This document shows, in pieces, positions 16,947-62,227 of a stretch of DNA of 64,000 nucleotides; within the stretch, counting starts at the first letter, position 1, and every line of letters starts with the position of its first letter. The translations under genes and the position numbers were made by a program. The DNA is from Deltaproteobacteria bacterium (lineage in GTDB: Bacteria; Myxococcota; Kuafuiibacteriia; Kuafuiibacteriales; Kuafuiibacteriaceae), in the NCBI GenBank assembly GCA_011526105.1, contig WYAZ01000031.1, forward strand, positions 131,796 through 195,795, read 5' to 3'. The notes below the pieces were generated by a model. The model searched no databases, was not told the origin of the DNA, and saw only the letters and a program-made list of their open reading frames with translations.

Positions 16947-18297
16947 GCTCGTCGAGTGCTTGCTGGCTCTCTTCGATGAGCGCCGGATCGCGCAGGTCCG
17001 TGACCGCGAGATCTTCGCGGTAAGAGCGATCGATCCACGCGCCCAGCTCCGCGTGCAGCTCGGGGTCGAGCACGGTGCGCGCGCCGAGGTCCCGTCGCTC
17101 CGCCTCGGTCATGACCACCCGCAGCCGGAGACATGCCGGCCCACCGCCGTTCTTCATGCTCTCGCGTACGTCGAGGTAATGGACCCGGTCGATGCCTTCG
17201 CGCCGCCCGACGAGCCCATCGAGATACCGCTTCACCGAAGCGTTCTCCTCGCACTCGATCGGCGCCAAGAGCACCTGGGCACCATCTTCGAGGCTGAGCA
17301 GTTGACTGTTGAAGAGATAAGAACTCACCGCGTCTGCGACGGAGACCTCGTCGCTGGGCACCTCGACGATCCGAAGCTCGGCCCCGGTCACCGCCTGAAA
17401 GCTCGCACGAAGTGCGTCGTGCGGCGCTCGGCCTCCGAGGAACGCTTCTTCGTGACAAAACAGCAGGTCGAGATTTCCGACCGCGATGACGTCGTTGTGA
17501 AAGACCCCTTGATCGATGACCGCTGGGTTCTGTTGCAGAAAGTGGGCTCGACCGCTGGCGAGGCACGAGAGTCGGGCGACGGCTTCACTCGCTTCGCGCG
17601 TCTGTCTCGCGGGGAACTTGCTCGGCCGCGGCGCGCCGTCATCGAGCGCGGTGCGTCCATAGACGAACAGATGCAGCCCAGGCCCGCCGTGGCTCGCGGC
17701 GAGGCGGGTGTGGTTGGCGGCGCCCTCATCGCCGAGGGTGTCGCAGCTCGGCAGCGCCGGATGATGCTGGAAGCGATCGGGCTCCGCGAAGATCCGGCCC
17801 AGCACGCGCCCGGTGGTCTCGTGCTCGATGGATCGATGGAGTTTGTTCTCCAGGTTCGCGGGGGTGAGGTGCAGCCGATGGTCGGTGGTGTCGCTGCTCG
17901 GGATGGCCGTGGCCGCATTGGCGGTCCACATGCTCGACGCCGAGTACGCCGCCGCGAGGAGAACGGGCGCCTCTTGGCTCGCGCGTTCCACGATCTGCTC
18001 GGGGGCGCCGGTAAAGCCGAGGCGTCGCAGTAAACCCAGGTCCGGCCGCGCGTGCGGAGGGAGCATCCCTTGCACGAGCCCGAGGTCGCTGAGGAACTTC
18101 ATCTTGTCGAGACCTTGCCGCGCCGCTCGCCGCGGGTGCGCAACTTCACCTGCGTTTCGCTTCGACGCGACGTTGCCGCGCGAGAGTCCGGCGTAGTTGT
18201 GGGTGGGGCCCACCAGCCCGTCGAAGTTGGCCTCGAAAGTTCCCATGGCGCAGTGCCCATAACTCGGCCGAGCCATCTTGGCCAAGCGTTGGCTCAA
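16897..18297 (-). CDS. astB: N-succinylarginine dihydrolase
   Basis: 466 aa; N-terminal [25 protein letters not shown] and C-terminal [11 protein letters not shown] are AstB hallmarks; true start may be internal Met ([10 protein letters not shown]). Confidence 0.8.
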
Positions 18298-38406: not shown

Positions 38407-41400
38407 TCACATGTTCCGGCGGTACTGCCCGCCGACTTGATACAGCGCTTCCGACATCTGCCCCAGTGAAGCGATCTTGCTCACGGAGAGCAGGCTCTCG
38501 AAGACGTTGCCGCCCGAGAGCGCGGTCTCCTTGAGCGCGGAGAGCGCCGGGCCACTGGCTGCGCGGTTTCTGGCCCAGAACGCCTCCTTCGAGCGGATGG
38601 CGTAGCGCTTTTCTTCCTCGGTGGAGCGAATGACCTCGGCCGGGATGATCGTAGGGGAGCCCTTCGCATCGAGGAAGGTGTTCACGCCCACGATCTCGAG
38701 CTCGCCCGAGTGCTTCAGCGTCTCGTAGTGAAGGGACTCGTCCTGGATCTTGGAGCGCTGGTACATGCGCTCCATCGCGCCGAGCACCCCTCCGCGCTCC
38801 GAGATGCGTCGGAACTCGGTGAGCACCGCCTGCTCCACGAGGTCGGTGAGCTCCTCGATAATGAACGCGCCCTGGACTGGGTTCTCGTTCCTCGAGAGGC
38901 CGAGCTCCTTGTTGATGATGAGCTGAATGGCCAGCGCGCGGCGCACGCTCTCTTCGGTGGGGGTGGTGATGGCCTCGTCGTAGGCGTTGGTGTGCAGCGA
39001 GTTGCAGTTGTCGAAGAGCGCGTACAAGGCCTGAAGCGTGGTGCGGATGTCGTTGAAGGCGATCTCTTGGGCATGCAAGGACCGGCCGCTGGTTTGGATG
39101 TGATACTTGAGCTTCTGGCTGCGTTCGTCGGCGCCGTACTTGTCGCGCATCGCCTTGGCCCAAATGCGCCGCGCGACCCGGCCGATGACCGAGTATTCGG
39201 GATCGAGCCCGTTCGAGAAGAAGAATGAGAGGTTGGGCGCGAACTGGTTCACGTCCATGCCGCGCGACAAGTAGTACTCCACGAAGGTGAAGCCGTTGGC
39301 CAAGGTGAAGGCGAGCTGCGTGATGGGGTTCGCGCCGGCCTCCGCGATGTGATAGCCGGAGATCGACACCGAGTAGAAGTTGCGCACGTCGCGGGCGATG
39401 AAGGACTCTTGGATGTCGCCCATCATTCGGAGCGCAAACTCGGTCGAGAAGATGCAGGTGTTCTGGGCCTGGTCTTCTTTGAGGATGTCCGCCTGAACCG
39501 TGCCGCGAACGACCTTCATCGTCTCGGCCCGAATCCGCTCGTAGACCTCCGACGGGAGCACTTGGTCTCCGCTGACCCCCAGCAAGAAGAGGCCTAGGCC
39601 GTCGTGGCCTTCCGGAAGCTCGCCCTGATACGCGGGACGCGGCTGCCCGAGCCCCTGGTAGATCTCGGCAATGCGCTTTGTAACCTCATCGGTCAGCCCT
39701 TGGGCTCGGATGTGCTTCTCGCACTGCTGATCCACCGCCGCGTTCATGAAGAACGCGAGCACCATGGGCGCGGGCCCGTTGATGGTCATGGACACACTCG
39801 TGCTGGGGTCCGCGAGGTCGAAGCCCGAGTAGAGCTTCTTCGCGTCATCCAGAGTGGCCACGCTCACGCCGGAGTTGCCGACCTTGCCGTAGATGTCGGG
39901 CCGGAGATGCGGGTCCTCGCCGTACAAGGTGACGGAGTCAAAGGCGGTCGACAGTCGCTTGGCCGGCAGGCCGCGCGAGACGTAATGGAAGCGGCGGTTG
40001 GTCCGTTCCGGCCCACCTTCGCCGGCGAACATACGTGCGGGGTCCTCGCCCTCGCGTTTCAGCGGAAATACGCCCGCGGTGTACGGGAACGAGCCCGGCA
40101 CGTTCTCTCTCAGCTGCCACCGCAACACATCACCGAACTCGCGATAACGGGGCAGCGAGACCCTCGGGACCTTCGTGCCCGAGAGCGACGTGCTGTAGAG
40201 CGCCTGCTCGATGACCCGACCCCGCACCGTGTACCGATACTGGTCGGCCCGGTAGCGCGATACGGTCTCCGGCCACGCATCGAGGAGCGCGCGGCACCTG
40301 TGATCGAGTTGCTGCTCGAGGGCGTGACGGCGACTCTCGAGTTCGGCGATGTACGCCGGCTCGGACTTGTCGCTCCGAAGGATCTCGATGGTGCCGGAGA
40401 GCTGATAGAGCTTGCGCGCGAGCGCACACTGCGACTCCACCCACGCCTCGTAGCGGTCGCTGTTCTCCGCGATCTCCGCGAGGTAGCGAGAGCGCTCCGG
40501 CGGGATGATGTAGATCTTCTCGCTGGCTTTTTCGGTCAGGGCGCCCGGACGGCCGAGCTTTGTGCCGCTGCGCTCGTCGAGGAGCTGGGTGATGCGTCGG
40601 TAGAGGTGGTTGGTGCCGGGGTCCGCGAACTGAGAGGCGATGGTGCCGTAGATGGGGAGGCCCTCGTCAATGGCGTCGAAGAGCTTGTGGTTGCGCTTGT
40701 ACTGCTTTCGGACGTCGCGCAAGGCGTCTTGCGAGCCTCGCTTGTCGAACTTGTTGATGGCGATGACGTCCGCGAAGTCGAGCATGTCGATCTTCTCGAG
40801 CTGGGTTTGGGCGCCGTACTCGGAGGTCATGACGTAGAGGGAGACGTCCGAGTGGTCGGTGATCTCGGTGTCGGACTGCCCGATGCCGCTGGTCTCGAGC
40901 ACCACGAGGTCGAAGCCCGCGGCGCGCACGATGCGCAGGGCGGCCGCGACGTGTTTGGACAGGGCGAGGTTCGCCTGCCGCGTGGCCAAGGAGCGCATGT
41001 AGACCCGTGGTGAGCTGACGGCATTCATGCGAATTCGATCGCCGAGCAAGGCGCCGCCAGTGCGACGCTTGGACGGGTCGACCGAGAGCACGGCGACGGT
41101 CTTGTCCGCGTGGTCCTCGAGGAACCGACGAACGAGCTCGTCCACGAGCGAGGACTTGCCCGAACCTCCGGTGCCGGTGATGCCGAGCACCGGCGGCCGT
41201 GCGGCGCCCTTTTCGATCTCGAGCGCCGATTCGAGCGGCGCGAGGACCTCCGGATGATTCTCCGCCAGCGTGATGAGCCTCCCGATGGCCTGGGGGTCTC
41301 GAGCGCCAAGACGCTTAAGCTCGGCGCCGAGCTGGCTCGTCTCGACGGTGGCAAAGTCTGCCTTTTGCACGAGGTCATCGATCATGCCCTGCAGGCCCAT

Positions 41401-41784
41401 CGCACGGCCGTCGTCCGGGCTGTAGATGCGGGTGATGCCGTGTTTGTGGAGGCGCTCGATCTCGGTGGGCAGGATGGTGCCGCCGCCGCCCGCGAAGATC
41501 CGGATGTTTGCGCCGCGTTCCTCGAGAAGATCGTGCATGTACTCGAGGTACTCGACGTGACCCCCTTGGTAGGAGGTGAGCGCGATGGCCTGGACGTCTT
41601 CTTGGATGGCGCAGTCGACGATCTCCTGCACGCTGCGGTTGTGGCCCAGGTGAATGACCTCCACCCCCGAGGCCTGGATGATGCGGCGCATGACGTTGAT
41701 CGCGGCGTCATGCCCGTCAAAGAGAGAAGCGGCGGTGACGATCCGAACCGGATTCTTCGGGATGTAGCGTGCGGTGTCGGTCAT
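38407..41784 (-). CDS. icmF: Fused isobutyryl-CoA mutase (B12-binding domain + MeaB-like G-protein + mutase substrate domain); start re-placed to ATG 41784 ([14 protein letters not shown]...)
   Basis: N-terminal B12-binding (…DGHDAAINV…), G3E GTPase ([12 protein letters not shown]), C-terminal methylmalonyl-CoA-mutase-like TIM barrel; ~1125 aa as for IcmF. Confidence 0.85.
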
Positions 41785-42758
41785 GGAGAGCTCTTGTGCC
41801 GCTTCATCATTTTTTCCATCTCGGCGCAATGATCGATGTCATTGGCCCGGGGCGTGAACCAGACGAGATCGAAGGGCAGGGCGGTGGCGCCGTACCTCGA
41901 TGCGTAGGCGGTGGGGTCGTTCTCGCCGTCCTCGATCTCCACGAAACCGATGCTCAGGCTGAGTGGGGCGTTCAGCCGGCGCAGGTACCACGGTACGGCG
42001 CGGTCGGAGCGCGTGTGGCCGGCGCCCGCGATCAGGATCGCTCCGTCCGCGGGGGCCGCCAGGAGTTTGTCCGCCATGAGCGCATCTCGGGCCCGCTGTA
42101 TCTCCAGCATCGGCTTCAACATGTCGTCGGGCAGGTGACCGCAGTGTCCGTCGCGCAGCTCCGCGATGAGCGCGGCCTCGAGGTCTTCGGGCAACGGCTG
42201 GCCGAGCTGGTGTCGTTCGACGAGCGCCGCCGGCAACGTCTCCGTACCGCGCGCCACGGACATCGCACGGTCACGCGGCAGCATCGAGGCGATGAGGGGG
42301 AACTCGGCCTCCATCGTCGCCGCAAAGACGGGACGATACATCGCCCAGTCTGGCCAGCCCGAACGCGCCCAGTCGAGCCGGAGGGCCAGCGCATCCGGAT
42401 CACTGGGGGCGCGCGCTCGTTGGTCCTCGACGTCTTGCTGCCGGCTCTCCTCGATCATCTCGACAACGACGTGTGGCCTTCGGCCCGCTTCGGCGAGCCA
42501 GCGCACCGCGCGTGCCTGAAGCCGGTGGTGATCCGGGTTGTCGTGGGTCTCGCCGAGCAGCACAAACCGAGCCTCGATGGCCCTCGTCCTGAGTTCTGTC
42601 TCGGTGACGAACTGACCCCGCGCGACGTCATAGATCCGTCCCACGAGCGAGTGGTCCTGGCCGAGCGGCGATTGCCAAGCGTCGGGGGCAACCACTTGGC
42701 GGGCGCTGGCGCAGTGCAGGCCGGAGAGCGCGATGACGGCGAGAACGGAGGTGCGCAC
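41781..42758 (-). CDS. ChaN/Tiki-family (haem/iron-uptake-associated) periplasmic protein; start re-placed to GTG 42758 ([19 protein letters not shown] signal)
   Basis: [12 protein letters not shown] and later GAGH motifs of ChaN family; track ATG 42869 would overlap divergent neighbour by 45 bp. Confidence 0.55.
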
Positions 42759-50180: not shown

Positions 50181-51446
50181 TCAGTCGCAAGCCTCGGGGG
50201 CCATGCCGTCGATCCAGGCGCGGATGAGTTCCACCGCAGGATCGTCACGGAGGCTTCGCCCGACCAGCGGCATGATCTCGCCCACCGTCTCTGAGGCCAT
50301 TCGGAAGTGCAAGATGGATTGCGCGGCGTTGCCGGGGACGATGTCGAAGCGCAGTCCGCCAGAGCCTGTTCCGGCCGAACCGGGTTCCTTGCACACGCCC
50401 AGACGAAACCGATCCGTCGTGTCGAAGCTCAAGAAGAGCTGCGAGGTCACGCCTTGGACGGAGTTTGGGTTGTGGCAATGCGCGCAGTTGATGTCGAGGT
50501 AGTCGCGGGCCGCGCGTTCGAGGCCGAGCTGATCGAGCCCCGTGGTTCCGGTGGTGGCGACCTCGCTGAAGTCGAAGGCTGGGTTGACATCACCGAGGTC
50601 CGGAAGGCCCTCGAGCCAGCCGAGACCGGCGAGATGTGTGAGTTGGTTGGCCGCCCCGCCCTCGTAGGGGAACGAACGATGCAGGTAGCGGGCCTTCGGA
50701 CCGAGCGGAGTCAGAAACGCGCCGCCCTCTGCGTTGAGCTGATCGTGGCAAGCGAAACACTGATTCCTCTGGGGGACCAGGTACTGAGCGGTCCTCGTCT
50801 GCCCACGCGGGTCGATGAAGGTGAGCGGCAAAACCGCGCCCCGCGCGAAGAAGTCTGCGTCCGAGCGGTCTTCACGCCACAGATACGGAAAGGCTCGCCA
50901 GCCGTCAGCGTACCGAATGAGCACGCGCGTCTCGAGAATGCGCACGTCCACCTCTGGGGTCCGGAGATCGGGGGCGATGGCAAACGACTTGACGATGGCG
51001 CTCCCCACCGGGAACTCGAAGCTGTCCGTGGGGTGGAACTGGATCTGACTCCCCGGCGGCAGGTAGATCGCACGCCACTTGAGGGCAAAGTCCGAGAACA
51101 GCGGCGTATTCAGGTCGTACGGAACGACGCCTTGGTTGTAGTCGGGCACACCGTTTCTCAGCCGGAAGAAGCGGAAGTCGGAGAGCAGGGGTGGTGGCTG
51201 CGGGTTGCTGATGTCGACCACCACCGGACCAAGCGGCGCATTCGCGTCCATCGGGGAGGCGTCGGCGGGGGCTGCATCCGTGACGCCGGCATCCGCATCA
51301 CTCGGCCTCGCGTCCATCGGGTCGGTCGCGCCGTCGCCCGGCGACACGTCGGCGGCGACGGCGGCGTCCGGACGCGAGTCCTCGCTCTCGCATGCGAGCG
51401 ATCCGAGGAGCGCGAGCCACAGGGCCATGATGATGAAGCGAGCCAT
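50181..51446 (-). CDS. Di-haem c-type cytochrome lipoprotein (two CxxCH: CFACHD, CAHCHN); start re-placed to ATG 51446 (MARFIIMALWLALLGSLAC lipobox)
   Basis: Lipobox, Asp/Ala-rich linker, two widely spaced CxxCH motifs; track N-terminus (His/Arg-rich) rejected; start overlaps stop of upstream gene as TGATG. Confidence 0.65.
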   Translation of the reverse strand: MARFIIMALWLALLGSLACESEDSRPDAAVAADVSPGDGATDPMDARPSDADAGVTDAAPADASPMDANAPLGPVVVDISNPQPPPLLSDFRFFRLRNGVPDYNQGVVPYDLNTPLFSDFALKWRAIYLPPGSQIQFHPTDSFEFPVGSAIVKSFAIAPDLRTPEVDVRILETRVLIRYADGWRAFPYLWREDRSDADFFARGAVLPLTFIDPRGQTRTAQYLVPQRNQCFACHDQLNAEGGAFLTPLGPKARYLHRSFPYEGGAANQLTHLAGLGWLEGLPDLGDVNPAFDFSEVATTGTTGLDQLGLERAARDYLDINCAHCHNPNSVQGVTSQLFLSFDTTDRFRLGVCKEPGSAGTGSGGLRFDIVPGNAAQSILHFRMASETVGEIMPLVGRSLRDDPAVELIRAWIDGMAPEACD

Positions 51447-53032
51447 CAGAATGGGAGCACCAGGTCCGCAATGGGGCCGTTCGTGAAGCCCGAGCAATCG
51501 AAGGGCGTAAACGGAGGGCCGGGCCGGAAGATGTCCGCGGTGGTCGGGAAGACCGACGGTGTTCCCTGCAGCATGTCCGCGAGCTTCGGCAGATCGAGCA
51601 CGGCAAAGGTGGCGCCGGTGTTCGAGCCCACGCAGATGTGGTTGTTGTTGGTGTTGCCTGCGGCCGTGGTGCCCGGCACCACCGTCTCCCCGATGCCGTC
51701 GTAGAGGTACGTGTCCACGGGGCGCTCGTCGGTGGGGAAGGTGTACAAGAACGAGATCAGCGCGCCGATCTCGCGCGCCACCGGGTCGAGCCCATCGGGG
51801 CTGGTGCCACTGCCGCTGTGGGTGTTGCCGTGGATCCATATCTCCTCGGTCCTGAAGTTGAACACCGCCGTCTCGTTGGTGAGGAGTCCCAGACCTGCGG
51901 TGGAGCCCACCACCTGATCGAGCGGAATGGCCCAGGCCCCCGTGGAGCTCGACACGGCGAGACCCGAGATCATCGCGATGTCCATGGTGTTGTTGTTCTC
52001 GTAGGTGTTGTCCGTGATCTCGACGCGCCTGGAGGCGAGGGCAAATGTTCCGGTGCCTGCGGGGATGGCGCTGACGGTGGTGCCGCTGGCGGCGAAGTTG
52101 GGTCGGTTGTTTTCGCGAACGATGTTGTCGTGGATCTTGATGTCGCGGCCCACGATCGGGTTGCCCGGCAGATCGAAGACCAGGAGGCCGCCCGTGTTGT
52201 CCTCGGCCAAGTTCTCGTACACGTCCGCGAACTGAGTGTTCTCGATCTCGATGCCCGCGACGTTTCTGCGCGCGATGTTTCGCCGCACGACAGCGTTGAT
52301 GCTCTGCCCGACATAGATGCCGGCATCACTCGCGTCGTACGCCTCGGAGTCTTCGAGGAGCACGTTGGTGCAGCGCACCGGGTAGATGCCGTACGCGCCG
52401 TTGGTCGACAGAGGTCCTCCGGACCACGTCACCTTGAGGAAGCGCACGATGACGTTGGTGCTGGTCTCGATCCGCAGGCCATCTTTCTTGGAGTCTGTGA
52501 TGGTCAAGTGACTGATCGTGAAGTTGTCACCGACCACATCGACGCCGTTGGCCTGCGCGGTCTGGCTCGAAAAATCGAGGATGGTCTCGTCGATGCCTTG
52601 GCCGGTGAGTGTCACCCCGCTCGCCCCTCGGATCGTGAGCGCGTTGTCGAGCGCGAAGCGGCCGTTTGCGAGGACGAGCGTGGTGGGTGCGGAGAGGCCG
52701 TTGACGGCGTCGAGCAGATCGCCGACCTCGGAGGGGAGGAACTCCAGACACGCGCCCGAGACTTCGGCGCAAGAGAACCGCGAGAACGGATCCGGCGGGA
52801 CGCCGGTGTCCGAAGGGCCCGCATCGTCTGCGGCGGCGTCTGACCCTCCGGTATCCGTCGCTCCAGCATCGACTCGGACGCCCGAGTCGATGCTCCCGGC
52901 GTCCGAGCGTGGTCCCGAGTCCCTCGCTGCGGCGTCGTCCGGAGTGCCGGCATCTTCGGTCGGCGTGTCATCCCCGCAGGCGGCAAGGGCCAGGGCCAAA
53001 GGGAGCAGGCAGCATAGGACGCGGCGTGTCAT
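51446..53032 (-). CDS. Right-handed parallel beta-helix repeat lipoprotein (NosD/pectin-lyase-fold-like); start re-placed to ATG 53032 (MTRRVLCCLLPLALALAACG)
   Basis: Lipobox, Asp/Ala-rich linker, repeated ~22-aa strands with N/D-x-I/V motifs (…NVLLEDSEAYDASDAGIYVGQSINAVVRRNIARRNVAGIEIENTQFADVYENLAEDNTGGLLVF…). Confidence 0.65.
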   Translation of the reverse strand: MTRRVLCCLLPLALALAACGDDTPTEDAGTPDDAAARDSGPRSDAGSIDSGVRVDAGATDTGGSDAAADDAGPSDTGVPPDPFSRFSCAEVSGACLEFLPSEVGDLLDAVNGLSAPTTLVLANGRFALDNALTIRGASGVTLTGQGIDETILDFSSQTAQANGVDVVGDNFTISHLTITDSKKDGLRIETSTNVIVRFLKVTWSGGPLSTNGAYGIYPVRCTNVLLEDSEAYDASDAGIYVGQSINAVVRRNIARRNVAGIEIENTQFADVYENLAEDNTGGLLVFDLPGNPIVGRDIKIHDNIVRENNRPNFAASGTTVSAIPAGTGTFALASRRVEITDNTYENNNTMDIAMISGLAVSSSTGAWAIPLDQVVGSTAGLGLLTNETAVFNFRTEEIWIHGNTHSGSGTSPDGLDPVAREIGALISFLYTFPTDERPVDTYLYDGIGETVVPGTTAAGNTNNNHICVGSNTGATFAVLDLPKLADMLQGTPSVFPTTADIFRPGPPFTPFDCSGFTNGPIADLVLPF

Positions 53033-53201
53033 CGGCCGACGTTTTTGCACGTTGGGTTCAATCATGGAAGGCCTGAGCCCCGGTGCAGTCCCTCGCGGCG
53101 GGTTTCCGTCGATATCTCAGGCAGTTCCGCCGAGCATCCGATGCGATATCCGGCCCGGCTCAATACGGTCACGCGCGGACGGGAAGGATGTGCAGCTTGT
53201 G

Positions 53202-55499
53202 ATGAGATTCCCACCGGGCCTTGGCGCCCTCTTGTTCGTTTCCTCGACCCTCCTCGGGTGCGGTGGTGAATCACCCACCGTGAGCCTCGTGGCGACGCCC
53301 AGTTCCGGCGTCGCTCCCCTCACCACCAGGCTCGACGCGAGTGGCAGCCGCGAACCCGAAGGGCGTGCGCTCGTATTCCGCTTCGACCTCGACGGGGACG
53401 GCACCTTCGAGACCGATTTCTCGAGCGAGCCCACCTACGAAGGCACGATCGCCGAGTCGGGCTCCTACCGCGCGCGTGTCGAAGTCCGGGTGGCGGAGGT
53501 CGCGGACGGGGATGTGGCGGCCTCCGAGGCCGCGATCGAGGTGAAAGCCAACCAGGCGCCCGTGGCTCGGCTCAGCCTCACGCCGCTCGAGGGAAAGAGT
53601 CCGCTCCTCGTGCGCCTCGACGCGAGCGCGAGCTCCGACCCGGACGAGGGGCCGGAGACGCTCACCTTCCGCTTCGACGTCGACGGAGACGGGGATTTTG
53701 ACACGGAAGCCGCCTCCACGGCCGCGATGGAGAACACCTATCGGAGCCCGGGGCGCTTCTCGGCGATGGTCGAGGTCCGAGACCGGCAGGGGCTGGTTTC
53801 AGTGGCCAGCGTGGATGGGCCGAACGTACTCGCCTCGGCGGACATCGCGGTCGACTCCAATCGAGACGGTCAAATCGACCAGGGCGACGAACTCGATGAG
53901 GAGACCTGGTCCCGCGATCGGGGCGCGGTGTTCTTGGCGAACCTGGACGATGATGACGGCGATGGCGAGCGGGATGGCCGAGAGGAAGTCTACACCGCCG
54001 GTAGCGACGCCCTCGATCTGACCCCGGTCCTCGTGCGCCAGAACGACCAGCTCTCGGACAACGCACGGGTCACGCTGACGGTGTCGCCGGCCGAAGGGGC
54101 CGCCTCGGTGCGCATCTTCATCGAAGATCCGGACGGGAGTCATCGCGTGCTGCTCGCGCCGAACGCCGCCTCCGCGGAGATCTCGGCCGCGCTTCTGCGC
54201 CAGGCCGACGCCAAGCTCTGGCTCGAGGGTTTGAGAACCCGCGTGCTCGGATGGGATGGTCACGTGACGCTCACGCTTCGTGTGGAGGATGGGGCGGAGG
54301 TCGATGAGGACGTCGTGGCGCTGCGGGTGTCGCCCGTCATCTTCCAGGACAACATCCTCGAGCCCTATCGGCTGTACCTGATGCGCATTTCGGACAACCG
54401 CCTCGGCCAGAATCTGCCGTTTTACAACGCGGTTCGCGACAACCTGCCGGAGACCATCGAGCTGTACGACGTCGATCAGTATCGATACGAGGCCGACCGC
54501 TGGGTGCAAGACACCATGCAGACCGGCTATCAGTCGATGCCTGGGCCGAACGGCACCCACCAGATGCAGACCTATCTGGCGACCGAGCGCCTCGAGTTCG
54601 GCAGCTCGCTTCAGACCTTGATCCCGCAGGAGCTGCTGAGGCCGGACCTCGGCTACTTCTACCCTGGGCGTTCGGTGGCCAGCTCGCTCAACTACGGAGG
54701 CAACCTCGAGGTGGCGCCGCCGCACTCGGCCGACGGCGTCGACTACCCCTTCGGCCGGATCGTCGTCGGTGGGGGCCGTCAGGGCACATTGATGGGCGTG
54801 CCCTACTCGGACGGGATGGGCGAGACGCAGCGCGCTTGGCTCGACGCGCAGGAGGTTCAGGGGCCTTCGCTTCAGTACTCCACCGAGTGGCTCGCGGTCG
54901 GCCACGTCGACGAGATCTTCCTGTTCGTCCCCAACCGCGCTGCGGCCGAGGGCGAGCGCGCCTGGAAGCTCATGATCGCTTCTCCAGATCTCGCGCGTCT
55001 CGCGCTCTCCCGACTGGTGGAGCAGGGCCAAGGTGACCTACCGGTCTTCTTGGGGCGCGAGACCCAGGCCACGGTCGCGGCCATCCTCAACGACCCCGGG
55101 CTCACGGAGTTCAACCGCCGGGCTCAGATCAGGATCGACGGCATCCGGGACGGGCTGGCCCAGGCGCTGGGGCTCACGGACCAAGACATCATCGAAGTGC
55201 CGGTCATGTACGAGTACTACGACTTCGACGGCTACGATCTGGCCGCCGCCTACAACCCGGGCATCCAGAACCTCATGGTCGCGGGCTCCACCCTCTTTAT
55301 CCCCGACCCGGAGGGTCCCGAGGTCGAGGGCGTGGACGTCTGGAAGCGAATGACTCGGGAGGTCACGGAGCCGCTGGGGGTGACCTCCATCTTCGTCGAC
55401 ATCTTCGAGAGTTATCACTTGAACCTGGGCGAAGCGCACTGCGGCACCGAGTTCGATACCGCCCCGTTTCCGACGCACTGGTGGGAGGTGGCCCAATGA
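53202..55499 (+). CDS. Secreted lipoprotein: 2x PKD domain + protein-arginine deiminase (PAD) middle and catalytic domains; start re-placed to ATG 53202 (MRFPPGLGALLFVSSTLLGCGG)
   Basis: C-terminal region aligns motif-for-motif with vertebrate PAD catalytic domain: NLEVAPP, WLAVGHVDEIFLFVP, LMIASP, LGEAHCGTEFD (nucleophilic Cys), terminal WWEV. Confidence 0.75.
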   Translation: MRFPPGLGALLFVSSTLLGCGGESPTVSLVATPSSGVAPLTTRLDASGSREPEGRALVFRFDLDGDGTFETDFSSEPTYEGTIAESGSYRARVEVRVAEVADGDVAASEAAIEVKANQAPVARLSLTPLEGKSPLLVRLDASASSDPDEGPETLTFRFDVDGDGDFDTEAASTAAMENTYRSPGRFSAMVEVRDRQGLVSVASVDGPNVLASADIAVDSNRDGQIDQGDELDEETWSRDRGAVFLANLDDDDGDGERDGREEVYTAGSDALDLTPVLVRQNDQLSDNARVTLTVSPAEGAASVRIFIEDPDGSHRVLLAPNAASAEISAALLRQADAKLWLEGLRTRVLGWDGHVTLTLRVEDGAEVDEDVVALRVSPVIFQDNILEPYRLYLMRISDNRLGQNLPFYNAVRDNLPETIELYDVDQYRYEADRWVQDTMQTGYQSMPGPNGTHQMQTYLATERLEFGSSLQTLIPQELLRPDLGYFYPGRSVASSLNYGGNLEVAPPHSADGVDYPFGRIVVGGGRQGTLMGVPYSDGMGETQRAWLDAQEVQGPSLQYSTEWLAVGHVDEIFLFVPNRAAAEGERAWKLMIASPDLARLALSRLVEQGQGDLPVFLGRETQATVAAILNDPGLTEFNRRAQIRIDGIRDGLAQALGLTDQDIIEVPVMYEYYDFDGYDLAAAYNPGIQNLMVAGSTLFIPDPEGPEVEGVDVWKRMTREVTEPLGVTSIFVDIFESYHLNLGEAHCGTEFDTAPFPTHWWEVAQ

Positions 55500-56587
55500 A
55501 CCGCATGACGACTCTGCTGATGGGTGCCTCGATGCTGCTCGCCTCTGCGGCGTTCGGCGCGAAGGACCCTGACTGGGCTCAGCGCCTCGGCGCCGCCCAT
55601 GGGGCGGCCTACCTCGAGGCGCGTGAGGCGTTGCTCGAGCTCGACGTGGCCGAGCGAGCACGTCTCGCGCGCGAGGCGCTCGAGATGGGGGCCGATCGGT
55701 TCGAGGCCGCGGGGCTCCTCCTGGGCGCGCTGGCGTGGCCGGAGCTCGGGGCGTCGTGCCGGTCGCGGGTGTACGACCTCCGAGGTCTAGATGCCGAGCG
55801 CGCTCGCTTTCGGCGCCGCCAGGGCCCGGAGGCCGCGAGCCATCTGCGTTCGGCGGTTCGGAGCGGTTGTGCCGCCCTGGTCCTCGAGCTGGCGCTGCGA
55901 CCCGAGTTGTACGAGCTCGAGGTCTCTCGCTCTTTGGCGCCGGAGCAGCGCGACGCACTGGATCGCGGCCTGGTGATCGCCCTCGGAGGCGCGCAGGGTG
56001 CGCCGGTGCTCGGCTATCTAGCATCGCGCGCCGACGACCCCAGCCTCGCCCCCATGCTGCGTCGGCGAGCGCTCGAAGCGCTTGGGCGCGTGGGCGGGGC
56101 GCTCGTGACCGTTCGACTGCGCGCCGTGGCCGATGACCCCCGCGGGCTCCCTCAGCTTCGGGCGGGGGCCTTGGTTGGCCTCGGGCTCGGCGGTGACGCC
56201 GCCGCCCGGCCGAGCCTGAGCGTGGCGCTTCGCCACAAAGACCCGACGATCGCTTCGGCCGCTCTGGTGGGCCTGTCAGCGCTGGCCGCAGCTCAGAACC
56301 CGCAAGCCTCCGATGGTCTTCGGCGCCAGGTGAGCGCCGAGCTCGTGGCTCGCCTGGCGGAGGTCGATGAGGCCATGAGCCCGGCGGTGGTGGACGCGCT
56401 GGCCTACGTGGCCCATCCTTCGGCCCTCGAGGACCTTCGGCGACTTCGGGTGGAGAGCCTGGCCCCCCGCTTTGATGTCGCCGAACGGCGGCTCCTGCGG
56501 GCCGGGCAGCGTGCGGGGGGCGTCATGGCGGGTGGGCCGGAGGTGCCGGCGACCAGCCCCAAGCGCCCTGAAGCGGCGCCCCGCTGA
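55496..56587 (+). CDS. Secreted HEAT/ARM-like repeat protein (start re-placed to ATG 55496, overlapping PAD stop as ATGA)
   Basis: Signal MNRMTTLLMGASMLLASAAFGA; Ala/Leu-rich helical repeats (…DPRGLPQLRAGALVGLGLGGDAAARPSLSVALRHKDPTIASAALVGLSALAA…). Confidence 0.5.
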   Translation: MNRMTTLLMGASMLLASAAFGAKDPDWAQRLGAAHGAAYLEAREALLELDVAERARLAREALEMGADRFEAAGLLLGALAWPELGASCRSRVYDLRGLDAERARFRRRQGPEAASHLRSAVRSGCAALVLELALRPELYELEVSRSLAPEQRDALDRGLVIALGGAQGAPVLGYLASRADDPSLAPMLRRRALEALGRVGGALVTVRLRAVADDPRGLPQLRAGALVGLGLGGDAAARPSLSVALRHKDPTIASAALVGLSALAAAQNPQASDGLRRQVSAELVARLAEVDEAMSPAVVDALAYVAHPSALEDLRRLRVESLAPRFDVAERRLLRAGQRAGGVMAGGPEVPATSPKRPEAAPR

Positions 56588-57532: not shown

Positions 57533-58852
57533 ATGGATCCTTCATCCATGGAATCAGTCAACCCCGAAGAACCTCCCGCGCGACGCGTCTCGAAGGCCGT
57601 TGTGCCTCCGCTCCCGTCCGGTGCGGACGATGAGCCCCCCGCGAGTCCGGCCCTCATGGCCGCCTTCGCGGAGCGGAGGACACCTTTCGAGATCTCCGCC
57701 CGCCGTATTCCGCGCATCAGCCCCGAGGCACGTCTGTACCGTCGCTTGCATCATCCGGGGGTGACCGACGCCGAGTGGAACGACTGGCACTGGCAAGCCA
57801 AGCACCGCCTGAGAAGCCTCGACCAGATCGAGCGCACCATCACGCTCACCGAAGACGAGCGCGAGGCGATCCAGAAGGGTGGTTCGATGCTGCCCATCGG
57901 CATCACGCCTTACTACATGAGCCTCATCCATCGCACGGATGCGCGGCAGGGCTTGCGGCGTACGGTCGTTCCGAGCCTGCAGGAGTTCGTTCGCATGCCG
58001 GGCGAGGCCGACGATCCGCTGGGCGAGGATGCTCACAGCCCGGTGCCGGGGATCGTCCATCGCTACCCCGACCGCATCCTGTTTCTCGCGCTGGACTACT
58101 GCTCCACTTACTGCCGCTACTGCACGCGATCACGCGTCGTCGGCGCCGGCGAGATCACAGCCAGTCCGGCGCGGCTCGAGATGGCCTTCGACTACATCCA
58201 GCGCACCCCCACGATCCGGGACGTGCTCGTCTCGGGCGGTGACCCTTTGTCGCTCAAGGACGAGAAGCTCGACTACATCCTGGGGCGGCTCAGGCAGATT
58301 CCGCACATCGAGTTCGTGCGCGTCGGCACCAAGATGCCGGCGGTGTTGCCTCAGCGCATCACGCCAGCGCTCGTGAAGATGCTGCGCAAGCACCACCCGG
58401 TGTGGATGAGCATCCACTTCACCCACCCGGACGAGTGCACGCCGGAGGCGTTTCGTGCGTGCGCGCGTCTCGCCGACGCCGGCATTCCGCTCGGCGCTCA
58501 GATCGTGCTCCTCAAGGGCGTGAACGACGACGTCGAAGTCATGAAGAGCCTGATGCATCGGCTCCTCATGATGCGAGTTCGGCCGTACTACTTGTATCAG
58601 TGCGATCCGATCTCGGGCTCCTCGCACTTCCGAACCTCGGTCGAGAAGGGCCTCGAGATCATCCGAGGTCTCCGCGGTCACACGACGGGCTACGCTTGCC
58701 CGACCTTCGTCATCGACGCCCCGGGCGGCGGTGGCAAGATCCCGCTGATGCCTGAGTACGTGGTTGGTCGCGAGGGCGACGATCTCCTGCTCCGCAACTT
58801 CGAAGGCAAGATCTACCGCTATTCGGATCCGCAGCCGGCTGGGAGTGCCTGA
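57533..58852 (+). CDS. kamA: Lysine 2,3-aminomutase family radical-SAM enzyme (KamA-like)
   Basis: 439 aa; CSTYCRYCTRS radical-SAM cluster motif in KamA context (…LALDYCSTYCRYCTR…), PLP-binding region, C-terminal KamA-specific extension. Confidence 0.8.
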   Translation: MDPSSMESVNPEEPPARRVSKAVVPPLPSGADDEPPASPALMAAFAERRTPFEISARRIPRISPEARLYRRLHHPGVTDAEWNDWHWQAKHRLRSLDQIERTITLTEDEREAIQKGGSMLPIGITPYYMSLIHRTDARQGLRRTVVPSLQEFVRMPGEADDPLGEDAHSPVPGIVHRYPDRILFLALDYCSTYCRYCTRSRVVGAGEITASPARLEMAFDYIQRTPTIRDVLVSGGDPLSLKDEKLDYILGRLRQIPHIEFVRVGTKMPAVLPQRITPALVKMLRKHHPVWMSIHFTHPDECTPEAFRACARLADAGIPLGAQIVLLKGVNDDVEVMKSLMHRLLMMRVRPYYLYQCDPISGSSHFRTSVEKGLEIIRGLRGHTTGYACPTFVIDAPGGGGKIPLMPEYVVGREGDDLLLRNFEGKIYRYSDPQPAGSA

Positions 58853-59844
58853 TGCGCGTCGGACTCACCTACGATCTGAAGGACGACTACAAGAACAGCG
58901 GTCTGTCCGAGGAGGCGCTCGCGGAGCTCGATCGTGAGGAGACGATCGTGGGCATCGAGGGCGCCGTTCAGGCGGCCGGACATGAGACGGTTCGCATCGG
59001 GTCTGCGCCCCGTCTCGTGGAACGCCTCGCGCGAGGCGAGCGCTTCGATCTCGTGTTCAACATCGCCGAGGGTCTGTCGGGGGCCGCACGTGAGAGTCAG
59101 GTCCCCGCGATCCTCGACGTCTATGGCATCCCTTACACGTTCTCGGATCCGTTGGTCCTCGCGGTGGCGCTTCACAAAGGCTTGGCGAAACACGTGGCGC
59201 GCGCGGCCGGCGTACCCACCGCCGACTTTGTGGTCGTCGAGACGCTGGCGGATCTCGAGCGTGTCGACCTCGCGTATCCCTTGTTCGTGAAGCCGGTGGC
59301 GGAAGGCACGAGCAAAGGGGTCACGCCGGCTTCGCTGGTGCGGGATCCATCGGGGCTCCGAGCGAGCACACGCGATCTGCTCGAGAAGTTCCGCCAGCCG
59401 GTGCTGGTCGAGCGCTACCTCTCGGGGCGCGAGTTCACGGTCGGGATCGTCGGCACCGGCGACCAAGCCGAGGTCCTCGGCTCGATCGAAGTGCTGCTGC
59501 TCGCGGGGGCGGAGCAAGGCATCTATTCGTATGAGAACAAGCAGCGCTGGGAGGGAAAGGTCACCTACCGCGTGGGGAACGCTCGTGAAGACGACGAGGT
59601 CCGAAGGGCTGAGTCTGTCGCGCTCGCGGCCTGGAGAGCCCTCGGGTGCAGGGACGCGGGTCGAGTGGACATTCGCTCCGATGATGCCGGCAATCCATGC
59701 TTCATCGAGGTGAACCCGCTCGCCGGGCTGAACCCAGAGATCTCGGATCTCGCGATCTTGATCAAGGAACACGGCATCCCATACGAGGCGCTGATTCGGC
59801 GCATCCTCGAGAGCGCCATCACGAGGTCCCGAGCCGCGTCATGA
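58852..59844 (+). CDS. ATP-grasp ligase, D-alanine--D-alanine ligase-like (1 of 2)
   Basis: 330 aa; Ddl-type N-domain (…EGLSGAARESQVPAILDVYGIPYTFSDPL…), ATP-grasp core (PLFVKPVAEGTSKGV, …EVNPLAGL…). Confidence 0.75.
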   Translation: MRVGLTYDLKDDYKNSGLSEEALAELDREETIVGIEGAVQAAGHETVRIGSAPRLVERLARGERFDLVFNIAEGLSGAARESQVPAILDVYGIPYTFSDPLVLAVALHKGLAKHVARAAGVPTADFVVVETLADLERVDLAYPLFVKPVAEGTSKGVTPASLVRDPSGLRASTRDLLEKFRQPVLVERYLSGREFTVGIVGTGDQAEVLGSIEVLLLAGAEQGIYSYENKQRWEGKVTYRVGNAREDDEVRRAESVALAAWRALGCRDAGRVDIRSDDAGNPCFIEVNPLAGLNPEISDLAILIKEHGIPYEALIRRILESAITRSRAAS

Positions 59845-60815
59845 AGATCCTCGTCGTTCATCAGGCGCTGGCCGATGACGCAGGACCCGATGAAGCCGAC
59901 GTCCTGGTCCAGGTCGAGGCGGTCAGCCAAGCGCTCGTGCGTCTTGGTCACGAAACCTCCGTGCTGCCCGTCTCGATGGACCTCGAGACGGGCCGGCGAG
60001 AGCTGAAGCAGCGAGCCCCAGAACTCATCTTCAACCTCGTCGAGTCGTTGGGCGGCAGCGGGCGGCTGATTCACTTCGCCCCCACGCTCTTCGACGTGCT
60101 CGGCATCCCGTATACGGGCTGCAGCAGCGCCTCGATCTACGAGACCTCGAACAAGATCCTCGCGAAGGAGCGGCTCGAGACCGCCGGCCTTCCGACGCCG
60201 GGCTGGTACGCTCCGGGGAGCGGTCGCTTCGAGCCCGGAGCGTATATCATCAAGTCGGTGGTCGAGCACGCATCCATCGGCCTCCTGGATGACGCGGTGG
60301 TGAACGTGAGTGCGCCCACCGAGTTGGACGAGCTACTCGAAGCGCGCCGAGATCGGCTCGGAGGCTTCGCCTTCGCCGAGCGGTACATCGAGGGTCGGGA
60401 GCTCAACGTCGCCGTCTTGGCGGGCCGAGTTCTTCGCCCCGACGAGATCCTCTTCGTCGACTACCCGCCCGAAAAGCCGCGCATCGTGGGTTACGAGTCG
60501 AAGTGGACACCCGGCAGCTTGGCATACGAGCGCACGGTTGCTCGCGCTGAGTTTCCCCCCGAGGACGGCACGCTGCTCGATCAGCTGAGTTCTCTGGCTC
60601 GGTCGGCATGGGATCTGTTTCGGCTCTCCGGATTCGCCCGCGTAGACTTTCGTGCGGACGAGCTCGGGCGCCCGTTCATCCTCGAGGTGAACGCCAACCC
60701 CTGTATCTCCCCCGACGCCGGGTTCGCTCGCGCGCTCAGCCGCGCCGGCATCAGCTACGACGAAGCGATTCGCACGCTCGTGGACGATGTGGCGGTGGGG
60801 GCGGCTCGAACGTGA
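59841..60815 (+). CDS. ATP-grasp ligase, D-alanine--D-alanine ligase-like (2 of 2)
   Basis: 324 aa; paralogous to previous (…VESLGGSGRLIHFAPTLFDVLGIPYTGCSSASI…, …ILEVNANPCISPDAGF…); ATGA overlap with previous gene. Confidence 0.75.
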   Translation: MKILVVHQALADDAGPDEADVLVQVEAVSQALVRLGHETSVLPVSMDLETGRRELKQRAPELIFNLVESLGGSGRLIHFAPTLFDVLGIPYTGCSSASIYETSNKILAKERLETAGLPTPGWYAPGSGRFEPGAYIIKSVVEHASIGLLDDAVVNVSAPTELDELLEARRDRLGGFAFAERYIEGRELNVAVLAGRVLRPDEILFVDYPPEKPRIVGYESKWTPGSLAYERTVARAEFPPEDGTLLDQLSSLARSAWDLFRLSGFARVDFRADELGRPFILEVNANPCISPDAGFARALSRAGISYDEAIRTLVDDVAVGAART

Positions 60816-61297
60816 ATCCGAGCTTTCGCAGTGAACCGGCGGCGAAGGATGTCGCGGCGGTGAGAGCGGTTGTGGCGTCGACCGGCTTCTTCTCGGAAGA
60901 AGAAGTGCGCATCGCGGAAGAGCTGGTCGAGGTCACGCTCGAGAAGGGCCAAGCGGAAGGGTACCATTTCGTGTTTCTCGAAATGGGTGGAAGCCTCGTG
61001 GGCTACACCGCGTTTGGACCCATCCCCGCGACGCGCTCGAGCTGGGATCTCTACTGGATCGCGGTACACGCAAGTCGCAGAGGCCAAAACCTCGGACGCG
61101 TGCTGCTCGATGAGACCGAGGCGCGCATTCGCGCTGCGGGCGGGACCAGGGTGTACGCGGACACCTCCGGTCGCGCGCAGTACGCTCCCACGCATCGATT
61201 CTATGAGGCGTGCGGATATCATCGTGCGGCCGAGCTCCCGGACTACTACGCGCCCGGGGACGCGAAGCTCACCTACTGCAAGAAGCTCGAGACCTGA
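60812..61297 (+). CDS. GNAT-family N-acetyltransferase (GTG start overlapping previous stop as GTGA)
   Basis: 161 aa; acetyl-CoA-binding motif A region (…IAVHASRRGQNLGRVLLDETEARIRAAGGTRVYADT…). Confidence 0.7.
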   Translation: MNPSFRSEPAAKDVAAVRAVVASTGFFSEEEVRIAEELVEVTLEKGQAEGYHFVFLEMGGSLVGYTAFGPIPATRSSWDLYWIAVHASRRGQNLGRVLLDETEARIRAAGGTRVYADTSGRAQYAPTHRFYEACGYHRAAELPDYYAPGDAKLTYCKKLET

Positions 61298-61357: not shown

Positions 61358-62227
61358 CTAGCGCTCGACCGGGTACGTGTAGTTGGCGCCGTGATCGGAG
61401 TCCCAGGCGGGCCCACCGAACACCGAGCCGCCGTAGGAGGACCCGCGGAACCAGAGCCGCACCGAGTGTGCGTCCTCGGGGACCTTCACCGCCGCCTCGT
61501 AGGGCACGACGTCCAAGTGTTGGCCCATCTCGCCCCGCTGAATCGCGAGCAGCGGCAGCTCGGATGGCGCTTTGCCATCGAAGGAGATGAACGCCTGAAC
61601 GGACCAGGTCGGCGCGCCGTGATGGAAGGTGCCTCGCAGGAACTGCTTGAGCCGATCCACATCGTAGGCGATCCGCATCGTCTCTCCGGCTCGGATGGGA
61701 CCGCTGACGGCTTCGCCCCAGAGATCGTCGAATCGCAGCGTCGCGCCGCCGCGGGGCGCGATGGGCACGCGGGAGTTGGCGCCGAAGTCGCTGTCGTAGA
61801 GGCGTCGGCCATCCTTGGTCTCGATCTCGAACCAGTATTCGACCTCGCCGGACGCGGAGTTCGGCACGGTGAGCTTCGCCGGGATGCGCTGGAGCTGAGC
61901 GGTGTGCAGATCGTGGGTGCCGTCGGCGATGAGCTTGGTCTTCACCGCGCCACCATCCACTCGGTAGTGCGCCCGGATCTTCGAGATCTCGCCGGTGGTG
62001 CCGAGGTCGGAGAGCCCTCTGTGATAACGCAAGTAGAAGGGCTTGCCGGCCTCCGCGATCGCCGGGAAGGGGCCGCCGGTGGTGGTCTCTGGCTGCAGCG
62101 AGACCTCGGTCCAGCGGAACGGGCCGCCGAAGTTCACCGCATGGCTCTCCGCCGGAACGGGCCGAGGTTCGATGCCGACCGAGAAGGGCTGGGGTGCGAC
62201 GGGCCGGGACGAACCGATGGAAGGCAT
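61358..62227 (-). CDS. Hypothetical protein (cytoplasmic, beta-rich)
   Basis: 289 aa ORF with good codon bias; no family recognised. Confidence 0.45.
   Translation of the reverse strand: MPSIGSSRPVAPQPFSVGIEPRPVPAESHAVNFGGPFRWTEVSLQPETTTGGPFPAIAEAGKPFYLRYHRGLSDLGTTGEISKIRAHYRVDGGAVKTKLIADGTHDLHTAQLQRIPAKLTVPNSASGEVEYWFEIETKDGRRLYDSDFGANSRVPIAPRGGATLRFDDLWGEAVSGPIRAGETMRIAYDVDRLKQFLRGTFHHGAPTWSVQAFISFDGKAPSELPLLAIQRGEMGQHLDVVPYEAAVKVPEDAHSVRLWFRGSSYGGSVFGGPAWDSDHGANYTYPVER

Follow-up and report, generated by a model that had tools for sequence, protein, structure and literature searches.

A stretch of 64,000 nucleotides on contig WYAZ01000031.1 of a Deltaproteobacteria bacterium (hereafter the window) carries two overlapping genes on its + strand, a gene for a protein-arginine deiminase (PAD) at 53202–55499 and a partner gene for an exported protein of HEAT-like repeats at 55496–56587. 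Judged by its sequence, the enzyme is a genuine PAD-family member (PF03068) related to the human PADs, and the pairing of PAD genes with this partner is specific and conserved, not incidental. On balance we favor the reading that the two translationally coupled genes encode an envelope-anchored, calcium-requiring PAD together with its dedicated binding partner, which would act as a regulator or adaptor.

Structure of the PAD Locus

The PAD gene begins at the ATG at 53202 and ends with the TGA at 55497–55499, encoding 765 amino acids, as indicated by the open reading frame (ORF), the public gene call and Pfam. The partner gene, supported by the ORF and the gene call, begins at the ATG at 55496, ends with the stop codon at 56585–56587 and encodes 363 amino acids. 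The stop codon of the first gene and the start codon of the second share the tetranucleotide ATGA (55496–55499), read directly in the sequence, which couples the partner translationally to the PAD gene. In the mechanical list of ORFs, the PAD frame reaches upstream to a GTG at 52518. This longer start was rejected, as it overlaps an opposite-strand gene at 51446–53065 and gene callers select the ATG at 53202.

The exact 765-amino-acid protein was present on 12 public contigs that stem from several sequencing runs, as well as in an NCBI assembly, and independent gene calls on public contigs with the identical PAD protein yielded the same pair of 765 and 363 amino acids. A pseudogene or a mis-assembly was ruled out by these 12 contigs, which point to a real, recurrent organism and not to an assembly artefact. 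The window itself contains one copy of the PAD gene.

The downstream neighbor lies on the − strand and converges on the pair, with its end at 56592, and the upstream neighbor is divergent; the transcription unit therefore consists of the PAD gene and the partner gene. A consensus scan of the PAD locus for a sigma-70-like promoter or a terminator gave nothing above background.

Family Membership and Domains of the PAD Protein

The 765-residue protein is composed of a lipobox signal peptide (residues 1–20), two PKD domains, a PAD middle domain (PAD_M) and a PAD catalytic domain (PAD_C). The first PKD domain (residues ~26–115; 53277–53546) was recognized by Pfam PKD at residues 28–95, by PKD_4 and by an all-beta block at E30–E115 of the structural model. 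The second (residues ~117–210; 53550–53831) corresponds to the best stretch of the PKD_4 match, at residues 117–200 (E = 1.3e-13), and to a beta block at E125–E210. PKD_4 (PF18911) scored 51.3 bits over two stretches against a cut-off of 27, and PKD (PF00801) scored 25.3 bits against a cut-off of 23.5. The PAD_M-like domain covers residues 213–367 (53838–54302) and contains the acidic cluster of calcium sites 3–6, and the catalytic domain covers residues 368–765 (54303–55496).

The catalytic domain was matched by PF03068 at residues 368–762, with an E-value of 2.6e-80 and 270.8 bits against a cut-off of 25, over profile positions 3–395 of 395. In a phmmer search of all PDB sequences, mammalian PADs were the only matches, extending over residues 213–763, with E-values of 3.4e-62 for PAD1, about 1e-57 for PAD2, 1e-54 for PAD3, 1e-48 for PAD4 and 5e-38 for PADI6. 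Since the alignment begins at residue 213, corresponding to residue 138 of PAD1, the PAD_M domain is present too, and close relatives carry PF08527 (PAD_M) in their precomputed annotation.

The AlphaFold2 model of the protein, built from 24 homologues, had a mean predicted local distance difference test (pLDDT) score of 86.9, with values below 50 for residues 1–21. When this model was compared with the PDB by Foldseek, the 50 best-ranked matches were all human or mouse PADs, comprising human PAD1–4 and mouse egg cytoplasmic-lattice entries that contain PADI6. The top matches were human PAD4, PAD3, PAD2 and PAD1, with E-values of about 1e-47, target template modeling (TM) scores of 0.70–0.78 and 650–700 aligned columns. 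A pentein alpha/beta propeller catalytic domain and an Ig-like PAD_M domain were found in the model, with Foldseek and phmmer in agreement. The aligned length exceeds that of PAD_M plus PAD_C, which suggests that the second PKD sandwich of the model occupies the position of the human PAD_N domain. No PAD_N domain was detected by Pfam, the N-terminal 210 residues being accounted for by the signal peptide and the two PKD domains, and NCBIfam has no model for either the PAD protein or the partner.

A Porphyromonas-type (PPAD) or agmatine-deiminase-type enzyme was considered and rejected, as Pfam gave no such match, including none to PF04371. This agrees with an earlier note on this DNA, which had called the enzyme a true PAD and not a member of the PPAD/agmatine-deiminase fold. 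Every catalytic-domain motif listed in that note was located in the translation (GNLEVAPP, WLAVGHVDEIFLFVP, KLMIASP, TEPLGV, GEAHCGT and THWWEVAQ). Its proposals of a lipobox, of two PKD domains and of a secreted HEAT-repeat protein coupled by ATGA at 55496 also held, the first through the LLGC pattern with Cys20, the second through Pfam matches above the cut-offs, as for PAD itself, and the beta blocks of the model, and the third through the overlap, a HEAT_2 match and a Sec signal.

Catalytic and Calcium-Binding Residues

Residues were mapped onto a fragment of human PAD2 (native residues 99–663), rebuilt from the phmmer alignment with its numbering checked via C647, and this fragment was included in a MAFFT alignment of 79 PAD sequences, the window protein and 78 from other genomes. 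The catalytic Asp437 (codon at 54510–54512, within RWVQDTMQ) corresponds to D351 of PAD2 and D350 of PAD4. His568 and Asp570, the ends of a His-Val-Asp triplet at 54903–54911 (within VGHVDE), correspond to PAD2 H471 and D473, and the nucleophile Cys747 (codon TGC at 55440–55442, within GEAHCGT) corresponds to C647 of PAD2 and C645 of PAD4. All four residues, of which the earlier note had proposed to confirm Cys, His and Asp, were identical in 79 of 79 sequences and were also invariant in the alignment of 24 family sequences. The substrate-side residues W434, R463 and H739 (W348, R373 and H639 in PAD2) are kept as well.

Calcium-binding residues, which the same note had also proposed to verify, were recovered only in part, with sites 3–5 kept, site 1 nearly kept and site 2 absent. 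For part of the PAD2 ligand list we relied on what we take to be the assignments of Slade et al. (2015). Three of the positions (D389, D125 and E131) were cross-checked in PMC8826395. Site 3 is fully kept, with N247, D249, D251, D258, D269 and D272 at the positions of PAD2 N154, D156, E158, D166, D177 and D180. Site 4 adds D482 (PAD2 D389), an Asp in 61 of the 79 sequences, and site 5 is kept with E261 and E342 (PAD2 D169 and E253). Site 6 is functionally kept, with D218, N220, D222 and D226 in place of PAD2 D123, D125, D127 and E131. The only internal stretch of low confidence in the PAD model, residues 465–471, coincides with the region of the PAD2 calcium-switch loop.

The protein is thus a catalytically competent-looking PAD in which the calcium cluster of PAD_M is intact and the second calcium site of the catalytic domain is gone. 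With sites 3–5 and most of site 1 intact and site 2 missing, a calcium-requiring enzyme with a simpler switch than that of the human PADs would be expected.

Conservation of the Partner Gene Beside PAD Genes

One genome per species was scanned for 185,579 species, which yielded 486 PAD-encoding stretches; the best 80 were taken as loci. This count bears on the statement of the earlier note that PAD homologues are rare in bacteria: they are uncommon, but not very rare. The best-matching genomes belonged to Myxococcota or to metagenome-assembled genomes (MAGs) labeled 'Deltaproteobacteria'.

When the window partner was compared with the 80 loci by plain tblastn, a single weak match was obtained (L025), giving the first impression that the partner is not conserved. 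This impression was overturned by an iterative profile search. The ORF immediately after the PAD stop codon nearly always encodes a protein of 270–380 amino acids with a signal peptide, and a jackhmmer search of these ORFs, seeded by the window partner, reached convergence after five rounds with those of 47 loci. As a control for specificity, the partner hidden Markov model (HMM) was run against 1875 six-frame ORFs of at least 120 amino acids from the 80 loci, with flanks of about 12 kb each. The 63 matches all lay at or just past the PAD stop codon, and no partner homologue was found by the HMM elsewhere in the flanks.

Among the loci from other species with enough downstream sequence, 62 of 75 carried the partner directly downstream of the PAD gene. 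They came from Myxococcota, Bdellovibrionota, Planctomycetota, Acidobacteriota and some cyanobacteria. The start/stop overlap was ATGA in 39 of these 62 loci and GTGA in four more. Pairwise identities of the PAD and the partner co-vary (r = 0.75), with faster divergence in the partner (mean identity 23%, against 35% for the PAD). In a relative of 53% identity, an independent gene call placed the same pair in quite different flanks, and some genomes contain two cassettes, for example Co_bin.297 (L013/L018), SSF41 (L039/L058) and co76_449 (L008/L024). The dedicated partner suggested by the earlier note is therefore more strongly supported now than when it was proposed, being conserved beside PAD genes across phyla. 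A third component of the system was considered and rejected, as no further gene family was kept around the PAD genes in the loci compared.

The partner was absent at all ten judgeable loci with an animal-like cytoplasmic three-domain PAD, which belong to Vibrio, Oceanospirillales, Paenibacillus, Limnoraphis, Synechococcus and Methanophagales archaea; at an eleventh such locus, L067, the downstream sequence is too short to judge. As far as sequence allows, most of the non-animal-like bacterial PADs in the locus sample appear to be exported lipoproteins with one conserved, coupled HEAT-like partner.

When the partner profile was used in a general protein search, most matches were generic HEAT proteins and only five were true relatives, a small number attributable to a word index swamped by words rich in Ala, Leu and Arg. 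A narrow profile of the N-terminal part gave five matches among protein representatives, a figure that is not informative on the size of the family.

At locus L031 (8083–9282, long-read MAG MFD04944), the C-terminus of the PAD, GEAHCGTE, continues in-frame into partner-like sequence, and the PAD region contains seven stop codons. This run-on is probably a frameshift error of the long-read assembly and not a true fusion.

Properties of the Partner Protein

All 19 sampled members of the partner family matched HEAT_2 in Pfam (best E-value 1.5e-17), the window partner with 28.7 bits against a cut-off of 27.7. When the family profile was compared with the PDB, HEAT-like proteins of the PBS-lyase type were matched over residues ~165–350, namely the alphaRep designs (E = 4e-65 to 1e-20), CpcE/CpcF and MTH187. 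A solenoid of this type was assigned to residues ~165–342 (55988–56521). The AlphaFold2 model of the partner is all-alpha, with a pLDDT of 85.1 and a predicted TM score of 0.81, and tandem helical repeats, an alpha-solenoid and the profile match together mark it as a HEAT-like repeat protein. Pfam and NCBIfam contain no family-specific model, and in public records such proteins go by 'hypothetical protein' or 'HEAT repeat protein'.

The N-terminal ~140 residues are specific to the family. Their best motif is G-L-x-P-x-x-Y-(3–4 residues)-[KR]-R-x-x-P-x-x-V-x-x-E-L, and R107, present in 43 of 49 partners, is the most conserved arginine of the family. It lies in an exposed loop at residues 101–111 (ERARFRRRQGP; 55796–55828), defined by conservation and the model. 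This loop is the only internal stretch of the model that is non-helical and of low confidence, with a mean pLDDT of about 50 over residues 101–110. With its conserved arginine and its flexibility, and as part of a protein so linked to an enzyme that deiminates peptidyl-arginine, the R107 loop is an obvious candidate for entering the PAD active site, as we infer from these features.

At three loci with giant multidomain PADs (two cyanobacterial and one unclassified), the partner is a short protein of 205 amino acids that lacks a signal. These PADs, at 2131–9369 of L036 (Aulosira) and similarly in L040 and L038, are 1100–1850 amino acids long and contain OmpA, PG_binding_1, Ig, PAD_M and PAD domains. 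A conserved ORF of 330 amino acids follows in four loci, including L036, whose copy has a weak Pfam match to the baseplate-hub-like E217_GP41 (E = 2.6e-4). The giant-PAD loci may represent the context of an injection system or an effector.

Export Signals

The N-terminus of the PAD, MRFPPGLGALLFVSSTLLGC|GGES, contains one basic residue, a hydrophobic core and the sequence L-L-G-C, and fits the PROSITE-type lipobox pattern. The signal peptide is encoded at 53202–53261, and the mature protein is predicted to start with a lipidated Cys20. This cysteine hardly varies across the alignment of 24 family sequences, and lipoboxes are found in most PAD relatives, PKD-bearing and simple alike. By this pattern, the PAD is a predicted lipoprotein.

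The partner begins with MNRMTTLLMGASMLLASAAFG|AKD, read as a Sec-type signal peptide without Cys (residues 1–21, ending AFG|A; 55496–55558), and residues 1–23 of its model have pLDDT values below 50. Most partner homologues have signal-like N-termini. The mature PAD could reside on the inner leaflet of the outer membrane, on the cell surface or on vesicles, so that 'extracellular' has the standing of a hypothesis. A periplasmic location would suit a lipoprotein and a Sec-exported partner just as well, and surface tethering would thus be a step beyond what the export signals indicate.

Proposed Function and Alternative Explanations

According to the reading that we favor, the PAD would hydrolyze peptidyl-arginine to peptidyl-citrulline at a center formed by Cys747, His568, Asp437 and Asp570. 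It would be exported and lipid-anchored at Cys20, with the two PKD domains as spacers ahead of PAD_M and the catalytic domain, and would work in the calcium-rich cell envelope, on the outer membrane, facing either the periplasm or the outside. The HEAT-like solenoid would be exported to the same compartment as a dedicated binding partner, most likely a stoichiometric regulator that either restrains the PAD or presents targets to it. Its flexible loop with the basic pair [KR]-R107 might enter the PAD active site as a substrate or pseudo-substrate.

Several observations weigh against this reading. Calcium site 1 is altered, with Q436, Q440 and E503 at the positions of PAD2 Q350, E354 and E412 (Glu354 replaced by Gln), and site 2 is lost, T438, A460 and T461 replacing PAD2 E352, D370 and S371; regulation, or even the need for calcium, may therefore not follow that of the human enzymes. 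At 13 of the 75 informative loci no partner was found, which indicates that the enzyme can do without it. The partner is missing, for instance, at L009, L013 and L022 of the window's own clade and at L047 of the giant-PAD group. Of the three short partners of the cyanobacterial type, two (L038 and L040) no longer have the conserved arginine. A location at the outer membrane or surface would be a guess from the lipobox, the Gly at +2 and the PKD domains. Finally, the neighbor-joining tree used for comparison is a rough one, built without bootstrap and without actinobacterial and fungal sequences, as the protein search returned only the window clade and sequences of the cyanobacterial type.

That the two genes form a toxin–immunity pair appears unlikely, although much in the locus would suit it. 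The PAD would in that case citrullinate envelope proteins of other cells, as an antibacterial or anti-prey agent that might reach its targets through outer-membrane exchange, vesicles or contact, and the HEAT protein would confer immunity by blocking the active site with its Arg loop. An enzyme gene followed by a smaller partner gene with a 4-nucleotide overlap, a partner that evolves faster, the sending of both proteins to one compartment, a two-gene cassette in unrelated flanks and the presence of two cassettes in some genomes are all features that such a pair would display, and the giant cyanobacterial versions adjoin the weakly baseplate-hub-like gene. The SitA toxins of Myxococcus are lipoproteins whose genes are followed by immunity genes. 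However, Pfam detected only PKD and PAD, with no delivery or polymorphic-toxin domain, and the neighborhood contains no conserved genes of secretion systems or of the Tra or Rhs type. Orphan immunity arrays are missing, the window holding a single copy. The trees of the PAD and the partner track each other over deep divergence, as in a stable unit and not in a shuffled polymorphic system, and a solenoid of 340 amino acids is large for an immunity protein.

Less probable still is dedicated maturation, in which the PAD would modify not many envelope or foreign proteins but a single substrate, which might be the partner (at R107) or else a peptide or natural product encoded at a distance. The PAD that acts on citrulassin offers a precedent (bioRxiv 10.1101/2020.07.16.207027), and a conserved Arg in a flexible loop of the partner, together with the one-to-one conservation of the two genes, could be read in this way. 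Yet a conserved 340-amino-acid solenoid with protein-binding HEAT repeats exceeds what a substrate would need, and the Arg is missing from most of the short cyanobacterial-type partners. Precursor-peptide genes or genes for peptides made by the ribosome and modified after translation (RiPPs) are not conserved nearby, and the PAD is exported, unlike known RiPP tailoring steps. We consider it very improbable that the protein is an inactive scaffold comparable to PADI6, that is, a structural or adhesive surface lipoprotein with a HEAT gene that is merely co-transcribed. The changes at calcium sites 1 and 2 and the PKD domains, which suggest adhesion or spacing, would be in keeping with a scaffold, and PADI6, itself among the PDB matches, represents a non-catalytic use of the PAD fold. 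But the four catalytic residues and W434, R463 and H739 are invariant or nearly so in 79 relatives, which is not expected without selection for catalysis, and the linkage to the partner is far too specific for chance co-transcription.

A broader proposal, which we put forward tentatively and hold to be more doubtful than the regulated envelope enzyme favored above, is that of an ancient two-component bacterial system of envelope citrullination. In it, the Arg loop of the partner would control the PAD, as an immunity-like inhibitor or as a switch operated by citrullination, and the cytoplasmic three-domain PADs that later reached animals would descend from it through loss of both the partner and the export signal and acquisition of PAD_N. 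If this were true, predatory and social bacteria (Myxococcota, Bdellovibrionota) would widely share an extracellular or periplasmic protein modification, citrullination, that has so far escaped study.

PADs are central to human disease, including rheumatoid arthritis, NETosis and cancer, and their origin has been traced to bacteria, where the native role of the enzymes has been established in one lasso-peptide case only. The exported form with a partner is widespread in Myxococcota and neighboring phyla, and the set of loci provides a data point on the change of calcium regulation and domain architecture towards animal PADs. Should the partner turn out to inhibit or activate the PAD, it would be the first natural protein known to us with such an effect on a PAD, and could inform the design of PAD inhibitors.

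Other Genes in the Window

The window has a G+C content of 64–68% and contains ordinary chromosomal genes, among them those for Lon, acetate kinase, a Ser/Thr kinase and a TonB-dependent receptor. At 50184–53065 on the − strand, transcribed away from the PAD gene, are genes for a NosD/beta-helix lipoprotein (539 amino acids) and then for a 421-amino-acid protein without a Pfam match, the latter with the haem-binding-like CxxCH motifs CFACH and CAHCH. This pair is not kept beside PAD genes elsewhere.

A tightly packed set of four genes at 57533–61294 on the + strand encodes a lysine 2,3-aminomutase (Radical_SAM and LAM_C), two ATP-grasp enzymes of the D-Ala-D-Ala-ligase type and a GNAT acetyltransferase. 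This arrangement resembles a small biosynthetic cluster whose product would be a compound or peptide derived from beta-lysine. At 16900–18297 (−), the succinylarginine dihydrolase AstB (E = 1.7e-195), another enzyme that modifies a guanidino group, is part of ordinary arginine catabolism, with no relation to the PAD locus. Ordinary context genes also include those for an IcmF-like fusion of a MeaB-type GTPase, a B12-binding domain and a methylmalonyl-CoA mutase (38410–41829, −; 1140 amino acids) and for a DUF6209 protein (61361–62140, −; E = 1.3e-33).

Comparison with Known PADs and HEAT Proteins

Bacterial PADs of family PF03068 are well established. They have been reported in 295 bacterial species, 69 of which are proteobacterial (PMC8826395), in a study that separates the three-domain PADIs of animals and late cyanobacteria from the two-domain PADIs of fungi, actinobacteria and proteobacteria and that demonstrated a cyanobacterial PADI to be active and calcium-dependent. 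In a survey of 837 bacterial PADs, genomic contexts were highly diverse, and a Streptomyces PF03068 PAD encoded away from its substrate was needed for the citrulline of the lasso peptide citrulassin (bioRxiv 10.1101/2020.07.16.207027). In neither publication is there any mention of a signal peptide, a lipoprotein, a fusion to PKD or a conserved neighbor, and full-text searches found no literature on myxobacterial PADs specifically or on a PAD–HEAT pair. PKD–PAD proteins are numerous in public data, with more than 100 clusters among the matches listed, many of them automatically named 'protein-arginine deiminase'. The enzyme is therefore a further member of a known family, and the exported PAD with a coupled HEAT partner is, as far as found, undescribed.

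With human PAD1–PAD4 (e.g., PDB 5HP5, 4N20 and 1WD8), the window PAD shares the architecture and fold of PAD_M and PAD_C, the catalytic Asp/His/Asp/Cys, the equivalents of W348 and R373 and calcium sites 3, 4 and 5, at an identity of about 24–31%. It differs in having two PKD domains in place of the cupredoxin domain PAD_N, in lacking calcium site 2 and in carrying Gln at the Glu354 position of site 1. The human enzymes are cytosolic or nuclear, whereas the window PAD has a lipoprotein signal and a conserved gene for a HEAT partner.

Three-domain PADIs, such as the cyanoPADI of Cyanothece (Cummings et al. 2021, PMC8826395) and related proteins of Vibrio, Paenibacillus and Methanophagales, belong to the same family. 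In contrast to the window PAD, they contain the animal-like motifs RWIQDEIEFGY and VVFDSPRD, calcium site 2 and a degenerate PAD_N, and lack a signal peptide and a partner gene. In the neighbor-joining tree, the animal-like three-domain PADs group with human PAD2, and the window PAD falls in a separate lipoprotein clade. The designation 'eukaryote-type' in the earlier note is thus correct at the level of the family only, as the window PAD has neither PAD_N nor site 2, does not group with metazoan enzymes and stands outside the animal-like three-domain group. Animal-like PADs without a signal peptide were also observed in Methanophagales archaea of the anaerobic methanotrophic (ANME) type (L052, L056 and L067), in Vibrio (L063 and L069) and in the Firmicute Paenibacillus (L041), and this patchy spread suggests horizontal transfer.

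The two-domain PADIs of bacteria and fungi (PMC8826395) resemble the window PAD in their core of a divergent PAD_M and PAD_C without PAD_N and in the lack of conservation of site 2. Changes of the type D125 to N and E131 to D at site 6 are also shared, the window protein having N220 and D226. Actinobacterial and fungal PADIs, however, have Gly at the 'calcium switch' position D389 (PMC8826395), where the window protein keeps Asp (D482). The His-His-His motif described for the strand that joins PAD_M and PAD_C (PMC8826395) is absent from the window PAD, which, according to general alignments, has VSPVIFQDN at this place. The neighborhoods of two-domain PADIs are diverse, with no partner reported, whereas the window enzyme is a PKD lipoprotein with a conserved partner.

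The PPAD of Porphyromonas gingivalis (PF04371) resembles the proposed role as an exported, surface-associated citrullinating enzyme of the same guanidino-modifying superfamily. It is, however, a member of another family than the window PAD (PF03068): it resembles agmatine deiminases, does not depend on calcium, acts specifically on C-terminal Arg and is exported through the type IX secretion system. The HEAT proteins of the PBS-lyase type (alphaRep, CpcE/CpcF and MTH187) are without the family-specific N-terminal region of ~140 residues, its motif and the exposed loop of the window partner, which is further distinguished from them by its signal peptide and its fixed place after a PAD gene.

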